Virus record (IMG/VR): IMGVR_UViG_3300006147_000378
Span: 1 to 64,000 of that record
Reading direction: 5' to 3' (one strand)
Source: a virus
DNA: 64,000 nucleotides
Program-made: the position numbers and the translations under genes
Shown: positions 4,591 to 33,159 of the stretch, one piece after another
Layout: the number at the start of each line of letters is the position of its first letter
Numbering within the stretch: the stretch's first letter is position 1
Notes under the pieces: model-generated
Told to the model about the DNA's origin: nothing
Seen by the model: only the letters and a program-made list of their open reading frames with translations
Database searches by the model: none

Positions 4591-4704
4591 CATCCCTGAG
4601 CCCAGTCGTCTGTTTCTGTGTAGGTTACAGCTCACACTCTTTTGCAAAGGGGGGTAATCAGGTTGGTATATATCACAGTCAGGCAATCACCCATCTATCA
4701 TCAG

Positions 4705-5799
4705 ATGACACTGGAGGAGTTCCTGTTTCAGAACTTCCAGGCACCTGCGGTTGTGAACGCAAACATGGCGAACACAAAGACATACGAATACGAATATGCA
4801 AGCGAACACTTTACAAGCAGTCTGGACGTTGACAGCCTCATCTACAAGTTGGAGCGGTACAACCAGTCGGTGGCCGCACTGCGGGAGAAAGACCGGCACT
4901 CTCTGTACGACAGCTTCCACATTCCCAAGAAGTCTGGTGGCTTGCGAAAGATTGACGCCCCACGCCCCGAACTGATGGATGCGCTCCGGCGGCTCAAGAC
5001 AATCTTTGAGGAGGACTTTCACGCTCTGTACCATACTGCGGCCTTCGCATATGTGAAAAAGCGCTGCACGGTAGACGCGGTCAAGCGCCATCAGAAGAAC
5101 AACAGTAAGTGGTTCGCCAAGCTCGACCTCCATAACTTCTTCGGCAGCACCACGCTGGACTTTGTGATGACAATGTTTTCCATGGTCTATCCATTCAGCG
5201 AGGTGGTTAAGGTTCCACACGGTCGGCAGGAGTTGAGGAATGCTCTTGAACTTGCCTTTTTGGACGGTGGACTCCCGCAGGGGACACCAATCTCTCCGCT
5301 CATCACAAATGTGATGATGATTCCTGTGGACTTCAAACTCTCCAAGGCGTTCCGAGAGTTCAATAAGCAACGGTACATCTACACTCGGTATGCGGATGAT
5401 TTTATCATCTCGTCCAAGTATGACTTCGATGTCCATACCGTTGAGGATTTGGTTGTCCAAACGCTGAAGGATTTTGGTGCTCCGTTCTCAATCAATAACG
5501 CTAAGACTCGCTACGGCTCATCTGCTGGCCGGAACTGGAATCTTGGTGTTATGTTGAACAAAGACAACGAAATCACGATTGGCAACAAGAAAAAACGGCA
5601 GTTCCAGTCCATGCTGTACAACTACATAACGGATAAAAAGAATGGCGTCGAATGGAGCCGTGAAGACATACAAACTGTGCAGGGGCTCCATAGCTACTAT
5701 CGCATGGTCGAGGAAAAGGCCATTGATGCAATCGTCAGCCATATCAACGACAAGATGAAGGTCGATGTGATGCGCCTCATCAAAGATGATTTAAGGTAA
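4705..5799 (+). CDS. reverse transcriptase, retron-like/defence-RT-like (motifs IPKKSGGLRKI, LDLHNFFGS, LPQGTPISP, YADD, INNAKT)
   Basis: RT motifs 1-7 in order in translation; QGxxxSP (not DGR-type); NAxxH-like AVKRH region. Confidence 0.85.
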   Translation: MTLEEFLFQNFQAPAVVNANMANTKTYEYEYASEHFTSSLDVDSLIYKLERYNQSVAALREKDRHSLYDSFHIPKKSGGLRKIDAPRPELMDALRRLKTIFEEDFHALYHTAAFAYVKKRCTVDAVKRHQKNNSKWFAKLDLHNFFGSTTLDFVMTMFSMVYPFSEVVKVPHGRQELRNALELAFLDGGLPQGTPISPLITNVMMIPVDFKLSKAFREFNKQRYIYTRYADDFIISSKYDFDVHTVEDLVVQTLKDFGAPFSINNAKTRYGSSAGRNWNLGVMLNKDNEITIGNKKKRQFQSMLYNYITDKKNGVEWSREDIQTVQGLHSYYRMVEEKAIDAIVSHINDKMKVDVMRLIKDDLR

Positions 5800-6513: not shown

Positions 6514-6631
6514 GGTATGGAACCATTCAATCATGCGTCAAAGGGGAGCCTTTACAGTATGCTGGTGCCTGCACCGGAAACTGGTTATACGTTGGTTCGG
6601 CGGGACGCCGCTGCATGAGCGTACTTTATAT

Positions 6632-6707
6632 TGGGGTGTAGCCAAGTGGTTAAGGCACGGGACTTTGACTCCCGCATTCGCTGGTTCGAGTCCAGCCACC
6701 CCAGCCA
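6632..6707 (+). tRNA. tRNA-Gln (anticodon TTG), CCA encoded
   Basis: closely resembles E. coli tRNA-Gln incl. 5' U; anticodon loop CTTTGAC. Confidence 0.8.
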
Positions 6708-6818
6708 TGTGCCGTTTTAAGCAAATTGTGTTTGGGTCAGAGAGGGGCTTCGTGTGCGCACCTTGTGGGGCCCCTCGTAAACAAATGTGCGGTAGGGCTT
6801 ACCTCAAGCCCACAATAT

Positions 6819-6894
6819 GCTGACGTAGCTTAACTGGTAGAGCGGGGCTTTCGTAAAGCTCAGGTTCCCGGTTCAACTCCGGGCGTCAGCTCCA
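6819..6894 (+). tRNA. tRNA-Thr (anticodon CGT), CCA encoded
   Basis: acceptor GCTGACG/CGTCAGC, anticodon loop TTCGTAA, T-arm CCCGG/CCGGG. Confidence 0.75.
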
Positions 6895-7031
6895 GTAGGT
6901 TCTGTTGGTCATGCTCACGTTTGTGCGGTTAGCTCATCACTCAACTGCTATCTCTGTGAGAGACACAGCCGGGTGCACACGGAGTCTTACGGGCGCAGAA
7001 TCCGCCGCTACGATGCGTCGCAGCGGTGTAC

Positions 7032-7106
7032 GCTGGTGTAGCTCAATGGTAGAGCCACCCCTTTGTAAGGGGAGGGTTGCGGGTTCGAGCCCTGTCACCA
7101 GCTCCA
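7032..7106 (+). tRNA. tRNA-Thr (anticodon TGT), CCA encoded
   Basis: acceptor GCTGGTG/CACCAGC, anticodon loop TTTGTAA. Confidence 0.7.
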
Positions 7107-7126
7107 CCCTGTATTACAGGGTTTTT
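7107..7126 (+). terminator. small terminator hairpin after tRNA (CCCTGT-ATT-ACAGGG + TTTTT)
   Basis: 6-bp stem and T5. Confidence 0.5.
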
Positions 7127-7286
7127 ACCACGGTGTTGGACGTGTTGTCCAATTCATTTCCTTTCCTTTCTTTGCTCATGTTGTATGCGTGTGCCGCTAA
7201 GCATAATAGGTGATGCTTGCGGTGAAGGTGGTTCGATTCCGCCAGTGGTACACGTCGTAGCAACAAAGAACCGTACCTCCATATAT

Positions 7287-10250: not shown

Positions 10251-10865
10251 ATGTCCGCAAATTTCGATGCAAGCAAAATGTATACATATCTCAAAGGGTA
10301 TGCAATGGGATTGGAGTGGCATGATACACTCGAAGCCCTTTCGTTTGCCAGGGTCGCACATAAAGACCAACGCCGCAAAAGCGGCGAACCGTATATTGTC
10401 CATCCTTTGACGGTTGCAAGCCATGCGGTGGCACTTGGAATTAAGGAGGATACAATCGTTGCGGCAGCAATTCTTCACGATGTTGTTGAGGATTGCGGTG
10501 TCAAAGCGGAGAATCTTCCTGTTTCTATGGACACGAGAGATGCGGTTCGCAGGCTCACGCATATCAAGGGCGAGCCTCTCGGCCCGTATTACCGTGAAAT
10601 TGGAGAGAACAGGGCCGCATCTATTGTAAAATTGTTGGATAGATGCGATAATGTATCTACCATGGCGGGCGTTTTTTCAGTAGAAAAGGTCGCACAGTAC
10701 ATCGGTGAAACGCGGCAGTTTGTTCTTCCGCTGTTGCGGGAGACAAAAGACAAGTGGCCAAATGACTCGAACGCACTCTTCGTGTTGAAATATCACATTA
10801 TGTCGGTTATTGATGGCCTTGAGGTCTGCCTGCAAGTAAAGAATGAGGTGGGTACAAATGCTTGA
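10251..10865 (+). CDS. HD-domain hydrolase of RelA/SpoT (p)ppGpp-hydrolase type (small alarmone hydrolase-like)
   Basis: HPLTVASHAVALG...AAILHDVVED HD motif. Confidence 0.7.
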   Translation: MSANFDASKMYTYLKGYAMGLEWHDTLEALSFARVAHKDQRRKSGEPYIVHPLTVASHAVALGIKEDTIVAAAILHDVVEDCGVKAENLPVSMDTRDAVRRLTHIKGEPLGPYYREIGENRAASIVKLLDRCDNVSTMAGVFSVEKVAQYIGETRQFVLPLLRETKDKWPNDSNALFVLKYHIMSVIDGLEVCLQVKNEVGTNA

Positions 10866-12063
10866 ACTCCAAGGAAAATTCGCAACCGCAAAAGTTTTCA
10901 CTGATGTGGTTGATAACGAATCCATTTCGCAGGTCATCAATCTCCTGAACCAGCCATATGCGGAAGGTGCCCATGTCCGCATGATGCCCGACATCCACGC
11001 TGGGGCAGGATGTACCATTGGCACTACCATGACTATTAAGGACAAGATTTGCCCGAACCTTGTGGGTGTGGACATCGGTTGTGGTATGGAGACAATCAAA
11101 ATCAAGGAAGACCACATCGAGCCGCAGAAACTGGATACCGTCATCCGTGATGGCATCCCTTCCGGGTTTTCTATCCGGGATAAGGCTCATCGGTTCTCCT
11201 CCGAGATTGACTTGGCCGAGCTGTATTGTGCCAAGCAGGTCAACATTGACCGTGCGCTGTGTAGCATTGGGACTTTGGGCGGCGGCAACCATTTCATCGA
11301 AGCGGACAAGGATGATGATGGTAACATCTATATCGTCGTCCACTCCGGCAGTCGGCATCTGGGGCTACAGATTGCCAACTACTATCAGGAGGCCGCATAC
11401 AAAGCACTCACCAGTTACAGCCAGGAGGAAATCGATGCTGTTATTACCCAACTCAAAGCAGAGGGGCGGCAAAAGGAAATCCAAAAGGCTTTGAAGCAGC
11501 TCAAGTCGAAGCATAGCCCGGTTCCGAAGCCGCTGGCCTATGTTGAGGGAGAGCTGTTTGACCAGTATATCCACGACATGAAGATTGCCCAGCAGTATGC
11601 TGAACTCAACCGCCGGGCAATGATGGATGTGATTGTGAAGGGCATGGGTTTCCATGTTGTCGAGCAGTTTACCACCATCCACAACTACATTGATGTGGAC
11701 AACATGATTCTTCGGAAGGGTGCTGTGTCCGCTCGGGCTGGGGAACGTCTGCTCATCCCCATCAACATGAGAGATGGTAGCCTGATTTGCACCGGCAAAG
11801 GGAACGAGGACTGGAACTGTTCTGCGCCCCATGGCGCTGGACGCCTGATGAGCCGGAGCGCTGCAAAGGAGACCTTCACAGTTTCCGAGTTTAAGAAGCA
11901 GATGGACGGTATCTATACCACATCTGTTGGCCGCAGCACTCTTGATGAGTGCCCGATGGCCTACAAGAACATGGCCGATATCGTGGACAACATCGACCCG
12001 ACGGCGGAGATTAACGCAATCATCAAGCCAATCTACAATTTCAAAGCAGGTGATGACGAATGA
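10858..12063 (+). CDS. rtcB: RNA 3'-phosphate/2',3'-cyclic phosphate ligase RtcB
   Basis: MPDIHAGAGCTIG and GGGNHFIE motifs. Confidence 0.85.
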   Translation: MLELQGKFATAKVFTDVVDNESISQVINLLNQPYAEGAHVRMMPDIHAGAGCTIGTTMTIKDKICPNLVGVDIGCGMETIKIKEDHIEPQKLDTVIRDGIPSGFSIRDKAHRFSSEIDLAELYCAKQVNIDRALCSIGTLGGGNHFIEADKDDDGNIYIVVHSGSRHLGLQIANYYQEAAYKALTSYSQEEIDAVITQLKAEGRQKEIQKALKQLKSKHSPVPKPLAYVEGELFDQYIHDMKIAQQYAELNRRAMMDVIVKGMGFHVVEQFTTIHNYIDVDNMILRKGAVSARAGERLLIPINMRDGSLICTGKGNEDWNCSAPHGAGRLMSRSAAKETFTVSEFKKQMDGIYTTSVGRSTLDECPMAYKNMADIVDNIDPTAEINAIIKPIYNFKAGDDE

Positions 12064-18104: not shown

Positions 18105-19187
18105 ATGCGCCAGTTAGCAAGTATCAGGAAGATTTCTGATATCCGCCCCATCCCCGGCGCCGACCGCATTGTGGTTGCGCAGGTTGATGGATGGGAGTGT
18201 GTTGTTCAAAAGGACGAGTTCCATGTGGGCGACACCATCGTCTATGTCGAGGTGGACTCTATTGTCCCAGAGCGCCCAGAGTTCGAGTTCCTGCGTGACC
18301 GTAAGTTCCGTGTGCGCACCATCAAGCTGCGTGGGCAGGTCAGTCAGGGCCTGGTTTTGCCGATGTCTATCCTGCCGGATGGCATCTATCCGCTTGGCAG
18401 CGATGTGACGAAGGTTCTCGGAATTGAGAAGTATGACCCCGAAGCACAGCAGGAGGCCATGCTTACCCAGAAGCAGCCGAACAAGCCCAAGAGCAAGTTT
18501 GCCCAGTTCATGATGCGGTTCAAGTGGTATCGCAAGCTGTTCATGAAGTCGAAGCGCAAGGGCGGGTTCCCAGAGTGGATTGTCAAGACGGACGAGACCC
18601 GTATCCAGAACCTGACCACCCTCTTTGATATTGAGCGGAGGAACGGCACCAAGTTCTCCGTCACTGAGAAGGTGGACGGTCAGTCTGCGACCTACTATCT
18701 CAGAAAGGTCTCCCGGCGCAAGTATGAGTTCGGGGTTTGCAGTCGAAACATTCACCTGGGTACTCCTGACAACAGCTCCTATTGGACTGTGGCAAAGAAG
18801 TACGACATCGAGAACGTGCTGAAGAAGCTCATCGGTGATTATGAAACTATCGTTTTACAAGGTGAAATCTGTGGTAACCAGATTCAGGGGAACAAGTATC
18901 ACATCAGTGGTTATGAGCTTTTCGCCTTCAACCTGATTTACCCAGGGCACAAGTGCGGCACTGCCGAAATCAAAGACCTGCTCTCCCCGTTTGGAATCAA
19001 AACGGTTCCAATCCTTGAGGAAGGCAAGGTTTTACCGGACACTATCGCAGATTTGGTAGAGTATTCCAAAGGTAAATCGATAGTTCGGAAAGAACAGAAG
19101 CGGGAGGGTGTTGTGATGCGCAACGTTCAGAAGAACATCAGCTTCAAGGTCATCAACCCAGACTTCCTGCTCGCAGAAAAGGACTGA
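18105..19187 (+). CDS. ATP-dependent RNA ligase-family nucleotidyltransferase (motif I KVDGQS) with N-terminal OB-like domain
   Basis: KVDG motif I; family assignment RNA vs DNA ligase is inference from context. Confidence 0.6.
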   Translation: MRQLASIRKISDIRPIPGADRIVVAQVDGWECVVQKDEFHVGDTIVYVEVDSIVPERPEFEFLRDRKFRVRTIKLRGQVSQGLVLPMSILPDGIYPLGSDVTKVLGIEKYDPEAQQEAMLTQKQPNKPKSKFAQFMMRFKWYRKLFMKSKRKGGFPEWIVKTDETRIQNLTTLFDIERRNGTKFSVTEKVDGQSATYYLRKVSRRKYEFGVCSRNIHLGTPDNSSYWTVAKKYDIENVLKKLIGDYETIVLQGEICGNQIQGNKYHISGYELFAFNLIYPGHKCGTAEIKDLLSPFGIKTVPILEEGKVLPDTIADLVEYSKGKSIVRKEQKREGVVMRNVQKNISFKVINPDFLLAEKD

Positions 19188-26422: not shown

Positions 26423-26557
26423 TGTGGTTATATATGAAGTTTGCACATTCAAAATATGCGTGGATTTACAAGAGCGCAACCGTGGTAAATGATGGATACT
26501 GCTTGCAATATAAGGTGTTCGGAATCACAGTTGCAAAAGCATACATGAATGGTTAAT
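26423..26557 (+). CDS. small hypothetical protein (44 aa)
   Basis: RBS AGGAGTAAAGGA before ATG. Confidence 0.25.
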
Positions 26558-26559
26558 AC

Positions 26560-26698
26560 GGTAGCGTAGCTTAATTGGTTAGAGCTGCGGGCGCAAAGCG
26601 TCGAGGAGTGACTCTCCTTCTTGGAAGGTACAGCCAAGACCCGTGTAAGTGGAGTGTTTCGTCAACATCCCGTGTAGGTTCGAGTCCTACCGCTACCA
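26560..26698 (+). tRNA. tRNA-like gene with ~64-nt internal insertion (intact acceptor/D-arm and T-arm/acceptor ends; anticodon unresolved)
   Basis: 5' GGTAGCG-TA-GCTT...GAGC and 3' GTAGG-TTCGAGT-CCTAC-CGCTACC-A; internal 8-nt direct repeat CCCGTGTA. Confidence 0.4.
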
Positions 26699-26721
26699 TT
26701 TTATGAAAAGTTAATTGGGCG

Positions 26722-26937
26722 GTGAAATGGTTGAGCTTACTTGGAACATTTTTTACTGAGCAACATTCATATTCTTCATCAGGAGGATATCTTCTGATAA
26801 CTTATCGCTGCTCTAATTGCAATCACAAAGTTACGCTCCCAGAGCAACAGGGGTTTAATTACTGCTATTTATGTGGTGAAAAAGTGCGAAAGATTAAGTC
26901 AAAGAGCTTAACCTGGAACCCATTATCACTCATTTAA
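26722..26937 (+). CDS. small zinc-ribbon protein (CxxC...CxxC)
   Basis: ORF in AT-rich block. Confidence 0.4.
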   Translation: MKWLSLLGTFFTEQHSYSSSGGYLLITYRCSNCNHKVTLPEQQGFNYCYLCGEKVRKIKSKSLTWNPLSLI

Positions 26938-26968
26938 GAATGAAAAGTTATTTGGTGGTGATTTTACT

Positions 26969-30782: not shown

Positions 30783-31805
30783 ATGACAATCGAACAAATC
30801 AAAGAGATGGTGAACGGCCCCGAGTACGATTTTCTCAGAACCAATCCCCATCTCCAGAACAGAATCATTTTCTTGACGCTGGGCGGCAGTTACTCCTATG
30901 GAACCAACGTGGAAACCTCCGACGTTGATGTCCGAGGATGTGCCCTGAACCGTCCATCCGATTTGCTCGGCCTCACAAACTTCGAGCAGGTCGTAAACAC
31001 ACAGACCGACACTACGGTTTATGCGTTCAACAAGCTCATCACGCTACTTCTCAACTGCAACCCAAACACAATCGAGATGTTGGGCTGCAAACCGGAGCAC
31101 TATTTCCTGCTTACGGATGTTGGCCAGGAAATGATTGAAAACAGGAAACTGTTTATGTCCCGGCGTGCTGTTCATTCCTTTGGTGGCTATGCCTCTCAAC
31201 AACTCCGGCGGCTTGAGAATGCCCTGGCCAGGGATAAGATGGCACAGGCTATGAAGGAGGAACACATCCGGCGCTCCATGGAAGGTGCTGTTAAGTCTTT
31301 CTCCGACCGATACACCTCTTTTGACAAGGGTAGCTTCGTCCTTTATACGGCGGAAAGCCAGCGTGAAGACCTCGACCGTGAGATTTTTGCGGACATCCAC
31401 CTCGACAAATTCCCAGTTCGGGAGTTCAACAGCATGATGAACGACCTGACCAATGTGCTGGGAAACTACGAGAAGTTGAACCACAGAAACCATAAGAAGG
31501 ATGATAACCATCTCAACAAGCACGCCATGCACCTTATCCGTCTGTATCTGATGTGCCTGGACATCCTGGAGAAGGGCGATATCATCACCTACCGGGAAGC
31601 CGACCACGACCTGCTTATGAGCATCCGCCGTGGCGACTATCAGCGTGAAGACGGAACGTACATGGACGAGTTTTTCGAGATGGTCAACGACTTCGAGCGG
31701 AGGCTGGACTATGCAAAGAACAACACGAGCCTCCCTGACAACCCCGATATGAAACGAGTCGAGGAGTTCGTCATGGAGGTAAACAGGAGGGCTCTGAATG
31801 AGTAG
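30783..31805 (+). CDS. pol-beta superfamily nucleotidyltransferase-domain protein
   Basis: LTLGGSYSYGTNVETSDVDVRG (GS...DxD) motif. Confidence 0.65.
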   Translation: MTIEQIKEMVNGPEYDFLRTNPHLQNRIIFLTLGGSYSYGTNVETSDVDVRGCALNRPSDLLGLTNFEQVVNTQTDTTVYAFNKLITLLLNCNPNTIEMLGCKPEHYFLLTDVGQEMIENRKLFMSRRAVHSFGGYASQQLRRLENALARDKMAQAMKEEHIRRSMEGAVKSFSDRYTSFDKGSFVLYTAESQREDLDREIFADIHLDKFPVREFNSMMNDLTNVLGNYEKLNHRNHKKDDNHLNKHAMHLIRLYLMCLDILEKGDIITYREADHDLLMSIRRGDYQREDGTYMDEFFEMVNDFERRLDYAKNNTSLPDNPDMKRVEEFVMEVNRRALNE

Positions 31806-33159
31806 AATCACAATTCCAGATGGGGCCAGGGAAATCATTGACACGCTGACCTCTGCTGGTTTTGAAGCGTATGTGGTAGGTGGCTGTGTCCGCGACAGCC
31901 TACTGGGCCTGGAGCCTCACGATTGGGACATTTGCACATCTGCATTACCATCAGATGTTATGTCGATTTTTTCAGAAAAGAGAATTATTGGCACGGGAAT
32001 GAAGCATGGCACTGTTACAATTCTTACAGATAGTGGCGGATACGAGGTCACGACTTTCCGCATTGACGGTGATTATTCAGACCATCGGCGACCAGACAGT
32101 GTGACCTTCACGACCAGCCTGGATGAGGATTTGTCACGCAGAGACTTTACCATCAACGCTATGGCCTACAACGATGCGGTCGGCCTAATTGACCCGTTCG
32201 GCGGTATATATTCTTTATGCAACCGAGAAATCTCATGCGTTGGCAGTCCTGCTCACAGATTTGAGGAAGATGCACTTCGCATCATGCGGGCTCTCCGTTT
32301 TGCATCCACATACGGGTTCTGTATCGAAGATAGAACGGCAAAAGCGATTCATCTGTTCGCTCCAAGCCTGAATAATATTGCTGTGGAACGTATCCAGTCT
32401 GAGCTATGTAAGCTCTTGCTGGGTGACGGAGCGCTTAACATCCTCTTGGATTACAGTGACGTGATTGCCACCATTATTCCAGAGATAGAACCTTGTATCG
32501 GGTTCGACCAAAACAACCGTTACCATGAGTACACAGTGTATGACCACATTGCTTATGCGGTTGCAAACTACAAGGGTAAAGACATCTCTGTCAAAGTTGC
32601 TCTTCTTTTGCACGATATTGGGAAACCTCTATGCTACACGGAGGATATAAACGGAGGCCATTTCCATGGACACGCTGTTCCAAGCCGTGATATTGCGGAA
32701 GCCGTTATGAATCGTCTGCGTTTTGACAACAGGACTAAAGCCGAGGTTTTAGAGCTGGTCTTGTACCATGACGCAGTGATTGAGCCGACGCCAAAGACCG
32801 TGAGACGGTGGCTGAATAAGATTGGCAAACATCGGTTTTCACAGTTGCTTAAAGTCCGAATGGCGGATATCCTGGCTCACTCCAAGAGAACGCAGCAGTC
32901 ACGCATCGAACGCTGTAATGCACTCAAGTCCCTTATCGCAGAGGTTCTGGAAGCAGAACAATGTTTCTCACTGAAAGACCTTGCCATCCACGGCAATGAT
33001 GTGCTGTCGCTCGGTGTTCCAGAAGGGAAAATTGTAGGGGATATTCTCCGGCATATCCTGGACATGGTAATCAACGGTGATGTCCCAAATGAAATCGAAG
33101 AGCAGATAGATATCGCCATGCAGTATTTGACGGAGCATCAACATGAGTGGAAGGAATGA
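31798..33159 (+). CDS. cca: tRNA nucleotidyltransferase (CCA-adding enzyme) with HD domain
   Basis: GGCVRDSLLG + DWD head motif; LLHDIGK HD motif. Confidence 0.8.
   Translation: MSRITIPDGAREIIDTLTSAGFEAYVVGGCVRDSLLGLEPHDWDICTSALPSDVMSIFSEKRIIGTGMKHGTVTILTDSGGYEVTTFRIDGDYSDHRRPDSVTFTTSLDEDLSRRDFTINAMAYNDAVGLIDPFGGIYSLCNREISCVGSPAHRFEEDALRIMRALRFASTYGFCIEDRTAKAIHLFAPSLNNIAVERIQSELCKLLLGDGALNILLDYSDVIATIIPEIEPCIGFDQNNRYHEYTVYDHIAYAVANYKGKDISVKVALLLHDIGKPLCYTEDINGGHFHGHAVPSRDIAEAVMNRLRFDNRTKAEVLELVLYHDAVIEPTPKTVRRWLNKIGKHRFSQLLKVRMADILAHSKRTQQSRIERCNALKSLIAEVLEAEQCFSLKDLAIHGNDVLSLGVPEGKIVGDILRHILDMVINGDVPNEIEEQIDIAMQYLTEHQHEWKE

Follow-up and report, generated by a model that had tools for sequence, protein, structure and literature searches.

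A tRNA-derived phage gene with a disrupted anticodon loop, tentatively interpreted as a maintained, non-decoding tRNA-like RNA

The locus at positions 26560–26698 (+) of the window, the whole 64,000-nt stretch of phage DNA analyzed here, raises the question of what a tRNA gene has become when its outer arms are intact and its inner part is over-long. A reading made from the sequence alone had offered three options: an intron-containing tRNA, a tRNA disrupted by a small insertion, or a tRNA-like decoy RNA. The 139-nt element is a real, unusual tRNA-like gene, and it is well supported that this gene is tRNA-derived, that its decoding part has been disrupted by inserted sequence, and that it cannot decode as it stands. 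Beyond this point the answer becomes tentative: we lean towards a tRNA-derived, non-decoding RNA that is maintained in tRNA-like form, and we infer that this RNA is made, processed and useful to the phage.

The Rfam tRNA model (RF00005) spans exactly 26560–26698 with 43.8 bits (E=5e-6 in the whole window, 3e-8 in a local search), above the gathering score of 29 bits for this family. Default ARAGORN found six ordinary tRNAs in the window and none at this position; with its 139 nt the element also falls outside the length of a canonical tRNA (~70–95 nt). Standard tRNA finders miss such genes, as the negative default ARAGORN result shows; only the local mode of the covariance model catches the element. 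In intron mode, ARAGORN does call it, yet only as an unconvincing Met(CAT) tRNA with a 59-nt intron, a candidate that was rejected because its anticodon stem has three G.U pairs, residue 33 is a G and the variable loop measures 11 nt. Our own scan, which looked for an acceptor stem of 7 bp, GG in the D arm, and a T arm with 5 bp and the loop TTCRA at any inner length, returned 26560–26698 as the sole over-long tRNA-like element in the window. The identical 139 nt are present in six contigs from different, independent metagenome assemblies; they therefore represent a real sequence and no assembly artefact. The two halves described in the sequence-only reading were confirmed, the 5′ part as GGTAGCG-TA-GCTT-AATTGGTTA-GAGC-T-GCGGG (26560–26591) and the 3′ part as CCCGT-GTAGG-TTCGAGT-CCTAC-CGCTACC-A (26669–26698); they are separated by 77 nt. 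The hairpins that it had named also appear upon folding.

The outer arms of the element are those of a tRNA, and all of its features lie on the plus strand. The 5′ strand of the acceptor stem, GGTAGCG (26560–26566), forms seven of seven Watson-Crick pairs with 26691–26697; U8 and A9 just precede the D arm GCTT-AATTGGTTA-GAGC (26569–26585), which was placed by the Rfam alignment and carries G18 and G19; the T arm GTAGG-TTCGAGT-CCTAC (26674–26690) has five of five pairs and a canonical T loop of the UUCRANY type; and the 3′ strand of the acceptor stem, CGCTACC, with the discriminator A (26691–26698), is followed by TTTT and not by CCA. Elbow features can be read directly from the sequence (U8, A9 with U12-A23, A14, G18G19, and the T loop UUCGAGU), and A15 and the U at 26673 (position 48) fit the usual tertiary pair.

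The inner part departs from this pattern. The 5′ strand of the anticodon stem, GCGGG (26587–26591), pairs with a first CCCGT (26640–26644) in the Rfam alignment, and also when the window variant is folded under constraints to its minimum energy; a second CCCGT (26669–26673) is its alternative partner. In a tRNA, the 5-bp stem encloses a loop of 7 nt with U33 and with a purine as residue 37; the element has 48 nt between the two strands. These begin with a 5′ anticodon-loop-like remnant, CGCAAAG (26592–26598), recognized from the sequence and from its alignment with other lineages, continue with a 36-nt insertion core (26599–26634), characterized by folding and without an Rfam family at E<=10, and end with a 3′ anticodon-loop-like remnant, CAAGA, read from the sequence and preceded by GC (26635–26639). 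The core and the flanking loop remnants can fold into three small hairpins (26592–26600, 26603–26619, and 26620–26638). The first CCCGT, assigned to the 3′ strand of the anticodon stem by the Rfam alignment, leads into an over-long variable region of 29 nt (26645–26673), in which the same alignment places a 26-nt insertion; it contains a predicted hairpin (26651–26671) and ends in the second CCCGT. The best layout by Rfam alignment is therefore of the class-II type, with a 48-nt segment instead of a 7-nt anticodon loop, and a 29-nt variable region. The earlier objection that the variable loop would be missing depends on assigning the second CCCGT to the anticodon stem; if the first one takes this role, the 29-nt variable region is available.

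The ancestry of the gene is not told by a single isotype signal, as these signals conflict: the D arm is of the class-I type found in Ile, Met, His and Asn tRNAs (the same 20-mer occurs in ordinary phage tRNAs for these four amino acids), the acceptor and T arms are those of phage tRNA-Tyr, and the loop remnants point to Leu(CAA). In related phage tRNA-Tyr genes with the same T arm, the variable arm ends in AACAT directly before GTAGG; the extra CCCG of the element therefore looks like a small duplication.

The two ends of the 48-nt segment, CGCAAAG at its start and GCCAAGA at its end, resemble each other; the first copy reads CGCAAGG in a second phage lineage (contig L058) and AGCAAGA in a lineage with a truncated element (L056). 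Judged by their sequence, both ends look like remnants of one NNCAAGA anticodon loop with ~36 nt between them. Among the options of the sequence-only reading, disruption by a small insertion is the best supported as the origin of the gene, with the qualification that the relevant repeat consists of the CAAG(A) loop remnants and not of the 8-nt direct repeat CCCGTGTA that had been likened to a target duplication. The latter repeat exists, and extends to 11 nt with one mismatch, but does not exceed chance expectation: an equally long repeat within 60 nt was found in 11% of first-order Markov random sequences of the same composition. A small mobile insertion with target-site duplication was rejected, as CCCGTGTA is at chance level and encloses only 21 nt, and the ends of the 36-nt core have no inverted repeats; further copies of the insertion were found neither elsewhere in the window nor in the scanned collections.

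The loop remnants also provide the starting point for the intron explanation, in which the ~41 nt between them would be cut out by a host or phage endonuclease, and RtcB or an RNA ligase would join the halves into a 98-nt class-II tRNA with anticodon CAA; one nuclease might possibly cut at both repeated sites. Removal of 41 nt indeed leaves a 98-nt product with a 5-bp anticodon stem and the 7-nt loop CGCAAGA (C32, anticodon CAA, G37, A38), and A73 and A15-U48 fit a Leu-type class-II tRNA according to the established identity rules. The product has G33, however, in place of the U33 that is near-universal in tRNAs, together with a variable region of 29 nt, and it is rejected by ARAGORN. A rule-based scan of every single excision found no product that combines a good stem, U33, a purine at position 37 and a normal variable region, and a permissive ARAGORN scan of 1311 excision products returned dozens of mutually inconsistent anticodons; the claim that no simple excision yields a canonical tRNA is borne out by these exhaustive scans. 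A tRNA-splicing endonuclease was not found among the 50 window proteins scanned in Pfam, nor was a bulge-helix-bulge motif found in either of the two folds discussed below. Protein-spliced tRNA introns are not known from bacteria or their phages, and a literature search brought up no relevant work on phage tRNAs with short introns or on phage-borne tRNA decoys. We regard splicing of this RNA as improbable, and as the weakest of the options offered initially, since it lacks a canonical excision product, a group I or other ribozyme signature, and a splicing endonuclease among the 50 proteins. If it were nevertheless spliced, this would amount to a new RNA-processing pathway in bacterial viruses. 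Even more doubtful is a conditional version, a “pro-tRNA” in which both CAAG(A) copies would be targets of a sequence-specific endoribonuclease of the anticodon type, such as a nuclease of host defence, and RtcB or an RNA ligase acting on healed ends would join the halves to a Leu(CAA)-type tRNA only while a tRNA-cleaving immunity is active; protein-dependent tRNA splicing would then be described for the first time in a bacterial virus.

The presence of RtcB, originally taken as a hint of splicing, has to be seen in its genomic context. The window belongs to a gut-type, temperate phage with an anaerobic host of the Bacillota type. Among its products are a LexA-like repressor, NrdD and a large serine recombinase, and its DnaE shares 46% identity with the DnaE proteins of Thomasclavelia, Clostridioides and Bacillus phages. 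Near the element are genes for RtcB (10843–12063), an ATP-dependent RNA ligase (18105–19187), a Thg1-like protein, RlaP, a CCA-adding enzyme (31798–33159), NADAR and YAcAr; the phage also encodes NAD-salvage enzymes and a calcineurin-like phosphoesterase. They belong to a dense set of RNA-repair and NAD genes (8870–33159) that includes RtcB, RNA ligase, Thg1-like and CCA-adding enzyme genes, as well as isochorismatase/nicotinamidase, PRPP-synthetase-like, HD, NAPRTase, Macro-like, NAD synthase, ATP-dependent ligase, Band-7, phosphoesterase, IscS-like cysteine desulfurase, HNH-AP2, NADAR, YAcAr and RlaP genes. Gene sets of this kind are interpreted in the literature as serving the repair of tRNAs that have been cut by host nucleases (PMC7824862, section 3.4.9). 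RtcB is indeed encoded, but it sits within this tRNA-repair set, with RNA ligase, Thg1-like protein, CCA-adding enzyme and RlaP, and is therefore accounted for without splicing; the same holds for the ligases in general.

The inner part was also compared with known RNA families and with random expectation. Rfam scans of 26450–26800 and 26587–26673 at E<=10, covering group I introns, hammerhead, twister, twister-sister, pistol, hatchet and HDV-like ribozymes, riboswitches and Y RNA, returned the tRNA model only; the same scan recovered a twister-sister and a pistol ribozyme in the related phage contig L077 (783–867, 66 bits, and 1372–1438, 57 bits; 500 nt apart). Interpretations as a Y RNA, a ribozyme or a riboswitch were rejected in the absence of any such Rfam match, and a tmRNA was rejected on the basis of a negative ARAGORN tmRNA search and of a U-A pair at 3-70 in place of G3.U70. 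A coding interpretation, based on a 43-codon ORF at 26575–26706, was likewise set aside; substitutions fall on codon positions 1 and 2, and identical contigs are without a gene call here.

With the cloverleaf arms held as constraints, the element can adopt two alternative folds. The first, S1, follows the class-II layout and forms three small hairpins within the loop (−45.1 kcal/mol for the window variant and −39.1 kcal/mol for the L058 variant); in the second, S2, GCGGG pairs with the second CCCGT, and element positions 39–109 form a long imperfect stem (−42.3 kcal/mol for the window and −44.8 kcal/mol for L058). The window variant thus favours S1 and the second variant S2; the substitutions C40U and C83U turn a G-C pair into G.U in S1, and a C.A mismatch into U-A in S2. 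Neither fold contains a bulge-helix-bulge; S2 has a 6-nt bulge, 4 bp and a 1×1 mismatch, not the 3-4-3 arrangement. Compared to dinucleotide shuffles, the inner 87 nt do not fold better than expected (z = −0.3 for the window, −0.66 for the second variant). The shuffle-level folding of the insertion and the different folds favoured by the two variants argue against a maintained RNA, and the former speaks for a decaying tRNA pseudogene without RNA function, created by insertion or duplication in a fast-changing accessory region, where either this event or an exchange between lineages would be too recent for more damage to have built up. The pseudogene is a close and serious rival of the tRNA-like RNA interpretation, although we consider it on the whole rather unlikely; the distribution of the element among related phages bears on both.

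A comparison with relatives, suggested as a check in the sequence-only reading, found the element at full length in two lineages, truncated in a third, and absent in others. Lineage 1, the window and contigs L061–L066, is clonal with at least 99.97% identity over 4–6 kb; samples containing this phage include ERZ12802902, SRR9157793 and JGI 3300006201, and SRR24878956 contains the second lineage. Lineage 2 (L058–L060 and L072) carries the element at 97.1% identity and has different flanking genes (an 86-aa versus a 44-aa gene upstream, and a 97-aa gene downstream), so that the block common to both lineages consists of 26554–26728 only. Homology to lineage 2 begins with the stop codon TAA of the preceding gene and three further nucleotides (26554–26559), and stops at 26728; the downstream edge (26699–26728) carries ATTTTATGAAAAGTTAATTGGGCGGTGAAAT, the ribosome-binding region of the next gene. 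The two versions of the element show four differences, all of them transitions (C6U, A38G, C40U and C83U); C6U preserves an acceptor pair as G.U, A38G lies in a loop, and C40U and C83U are pairing-compatible in both folds. Divergence amounts to 4 of 139 positions in the element versus 4 of 36 in the flanks of the same module (Fisher p=0.057), and neighbouring genes diverge by ~14% (binomial 1e-5 versus the element). As a caveat, the region is a mosaic with blocks of ~100% identity between lineages; the low divergence of the element may therefore reflect recent exchange, and these figures do not prove selection. Similarly, with two independent full-length sequences only, and contigs that are clonal within each lineage, purifying selection is not demonstrated.

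Lineage 3 (L001/L056 and L074–L076) retains just the first 78 nt, joined directly to a downstream 112-aa gene; this remnant has accumulated 13 changes, and its D stem and both hairpins are broken. At the corresponding place in L057, L067, L077, L078 and L215–L219 the element is absent. Its absence from several relatives and its truncation in one lineage mean that it is dispensable; by sequence comparison, it can be described as an accessory module that is kept intact where both halves are present. Exact-pattern scans with the 5′ half, the insertion and the 3′ half against IMG/VR, JGI metagenome contigs and GTDB genomes matched only the truncated copy in L056, the second-lineage contig L072, and an unrelated tRNA-Tyr in L073; 41 loci around NADAR homologues were without a copy within 3 kb, and a synteny search via the 112-aa, 86-aa and 97-aa neighbours recovered lineages 2 and 3 and no third full-length variant. 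In the element-less contig L057, the intergenic region 2681–2798, upstream of a small ORF, shares the 11-mer TTTCGTCAACA with the variable region of the element, probably by chance.

This distribution can be read in two ways. The absence of the element from most relatives and its truncation in one lineage are compatible with a pseudogene, as are the blocks of ~100% identity, which indicate recent recombination; the element also lacks an encoded CCA, unlike all six canonical and working tRNAs of the phage, and odd tRNA relics exist in similar phages (a 70-nt gene in L008, and a duplicated variable arm in L080). Moreover, the sequence next to the element in the window lineage consists of remnants. 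The stretch 26699–26968 looks like gene debris, where an ATG at 26728 that matches the beginning of the 97-aa gene of lineage 2 opens 10 codons only, and a 71-codon Zn-ribbon ORF with a GTG start (26722–26937) has no gene call in identical contigs. On the other hand, at least two changes in length have left the acceptor, D and T stems perfect in both lineages, the four substitutions are all transitions and those in stems are pairing-compatible, and the element has outlasted deletions on both sides in the window lineage. The truncated copy, with its 13 changes in 78 nt, demonstrates how unconstrained decay looks in the same gene. The intact acceptor, D and T arms and the retention in two lineages are, as far as sequence comparison goes, compatible with a tRNA-like decoy RNA.

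The position of the element suggests yet another role. In both contexts it begins 3 nt past the stop codon of the upstream gene and lies ~30 nt ahead of the next start codon, the conserved module takes in the downstream ribosome-binding region, and no promoter or terminator of its own was found. These observations would fit a processing signal that acts in cis only, comparable to tRNA punctuation, where RNase P and RNase Z would cut the mRNA between two genes and the excised RNA would have no role of its own. For either enzyme, the upper half of a tRNA is sufficient as a substrate. Yet such a signal does not need a conserved inner part, and the inner 87 nt show only three changes between the lineages; most intergenic junctions in these phages are without such an element. 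A purely cis-acting signal therefore appears hardly likely to us.

In the tentatively preferred explanation of a maintained tRNA-like RNA, the ancestor would have been a class-II-type tRNA that had discriminator A73, AAUUGGUUA as its D loop and, probably, the Leu-type anticodon CAA in its anticodon loop. This tRNA would have gained ~41 nt inside the anticodon loop, leaving one loop remnant on each side, and its variable region, long from the start, would have grown by a few bases, while the acceptor stem, the D arm, the T arm and the elbow nucleotides would have been left untouched. As it lacks its own promoter and terminator, the element would probably be transcribed together with the neighbouring genes; RNase P would generate the 5′ end, and RNase Z the 3′ end by cutting behind the discriminator, where UUUU follows just as it does in those Bacillota tRNA genes that do not encode CCA. 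The product would be an RNA of ~139 nt that could then be extended by the CCA-adding enzyme. Without a 7-nt anticodon loop with U33, this product cannot read codons; it might instead act as a tRNA mimic, either as a decoy or sponge for a host factor that recognizes the acceptor and elbow half, or as a processing signal within a polycistronic transcript. Its retention in two lineages and in different gene contexts, within a neighbourhood of tRNA-repair and counter-defence genes, suggests use as such a mimic.

For the present, the element is a curiosity and not a demonstrated new mechanism. Its interest derives from its setting: Bacillota phages with full tRNA-repair kits are engaged in an arms race over tRNAs, where a tRNA-shaped RNA that is unable to decode, and still keeps the features seen by processing and end-modifying enzymes, would be a plausible decoy or regulator. 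Non-decoding tRNA-shaped RNAs are almost unstudied, and the species 1 and 2 RNAs of phage T4 are still without an annotated function. Since similar relics occur in unrelated phage contigs, it may pay to search systematically for genes whose upper tRNA half is intact, whatever lies between its two sides.

Several further unusual tRNA-like genes are present in the window itself and elsewhere. The window contains a 93-nt class-II tRNA (103–195, +) whose variable arm is long, whose discriminator is G and whose CCA is encoded in the gene; its anticodon loop CUUUUGA (UUU, G37) places a Lys anticodon on a Ser/Leu-type body, and it is called Lys by ARAGORN and scores 49 bits with Rfam. In the tRNA cluster at 6514–7286, where a reverse transcriptase gene (RVT_1, 385 aa; 4642–5799, +) lies directly upstream, all spacers are long and strongly structured. 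One of these intervals, between tRNA-Thr and tRNA-Pro (7187–7255, +), forms a 12-bp stem around a hairpin and a T-arm-like GGUGG-UUCGAUU-CCGCC, a tRNA-like minihelix without an Rfam match. In L008, a 70-nt tRNA-like gene (1344–1413; Rfam 51 bits, ARAGORN negative, no CCA) has its anticodon arm and variable loop reduced to 19 nt, and recurs in identical form in five further IMG/VR loci (L083, L095, L191, L192 and L194). The 202-kb phage contig L210 carries two adjacent tRNA-like genes (~118–330, +), each with ~36 extra nt after the D arm that start with UAAGUGAAG or UUAGUGAAG; excision of 36 nt from the first gene would give a near-canonical Thr(AGU) tRNA. L195 contains a tRNA-like gene of 118 nt that lacks CCA and has 48 nt in its variable region; in the 100-nt phage tRNA-Tyr of L080, the variable arm occurs twice in tandem. 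Expanded or aberrant tRNA-like genes are probably more widespread than the locus studied here.

Comparison with known systems places the element near several of them. With the intron-containing pre-tRNAs of archaea and eukaryotes it shares extra sequence in the anticodon loop and an RtcB-type ligase in the genome; it differs in having no bulge-helix-bulge and no canonical excision product, and a splicing endonuclease was not found among the 50 window proteins scanned. Bacterial group I introns interrupt tRNA anticodon loops at the same place, but they exceed 200 nt, whereas the insertion in the element measures 41–48 nt and shows no group I core (RF00028) in Rfam searches. In fold S2, the element resembles the Y-RNA-like YrlA in presenting an upper tRNA half on a long imperfect stem, and YrlA co-occurs with RtcB repair genes (PMC7824862). 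The topology of the two is permuted, however: the ends of the element lie at the acceptor stem, those of YrlA in the long stem. The element has no Rfam match to this family, whose model would miss a permuted form, and a scan of 50 window proteins brought up no Ro/TROVE protein.

The aberrant genes in L008 (70 nt), L210 (two in tandem) and L195 (118 nt) have intact acceptor, D and T arms, an aberrant anticodon region and no CCA in common with the element; their inner parts are unrelated to it in sequence, and none of them has been characterized. The species 1 and 2 RNAs of phage T4 (rnaC, 139 nt, and rnaD, 119 nt) offer a parallel as phage-encoded, stable small RNAs with tRNA-like parts; in our comparison of the T4 annotation and sequence, both are annotated without function. 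In rnaC, a T arm, CCGGGUUCGAAUCCCGG, stands beside an acceptor-like stem, and its length match of 139 nt with the element is coincidental. The T4 RNAs share no sequence similarity with the element; rnaC has neither a D arm nor a complete cloverleaf, its 5′ end lies outside the tRNA-like part, and it is located inside a tRNA cluster, whereas the element lies 19 kb from the tRNA cluster of its phage. Finally, class-II tRNAs of the Leu and Tyr type differ from the element by their ordinary 7-nt anticodon loop, where the element has a 48-nt segment without U33, in addition to its 29-nt variable region, its missing CCA and its length of 139 nt; yet an acceptor stem of 7 bp, A73, the D loop AAUUGGUUA, a variable arm of unusual length and a T arm of canonical form are common to both, and in the phage tRNA-Tyr genes of L073 and L080 the acceptor and T arms are identical to those of the element.
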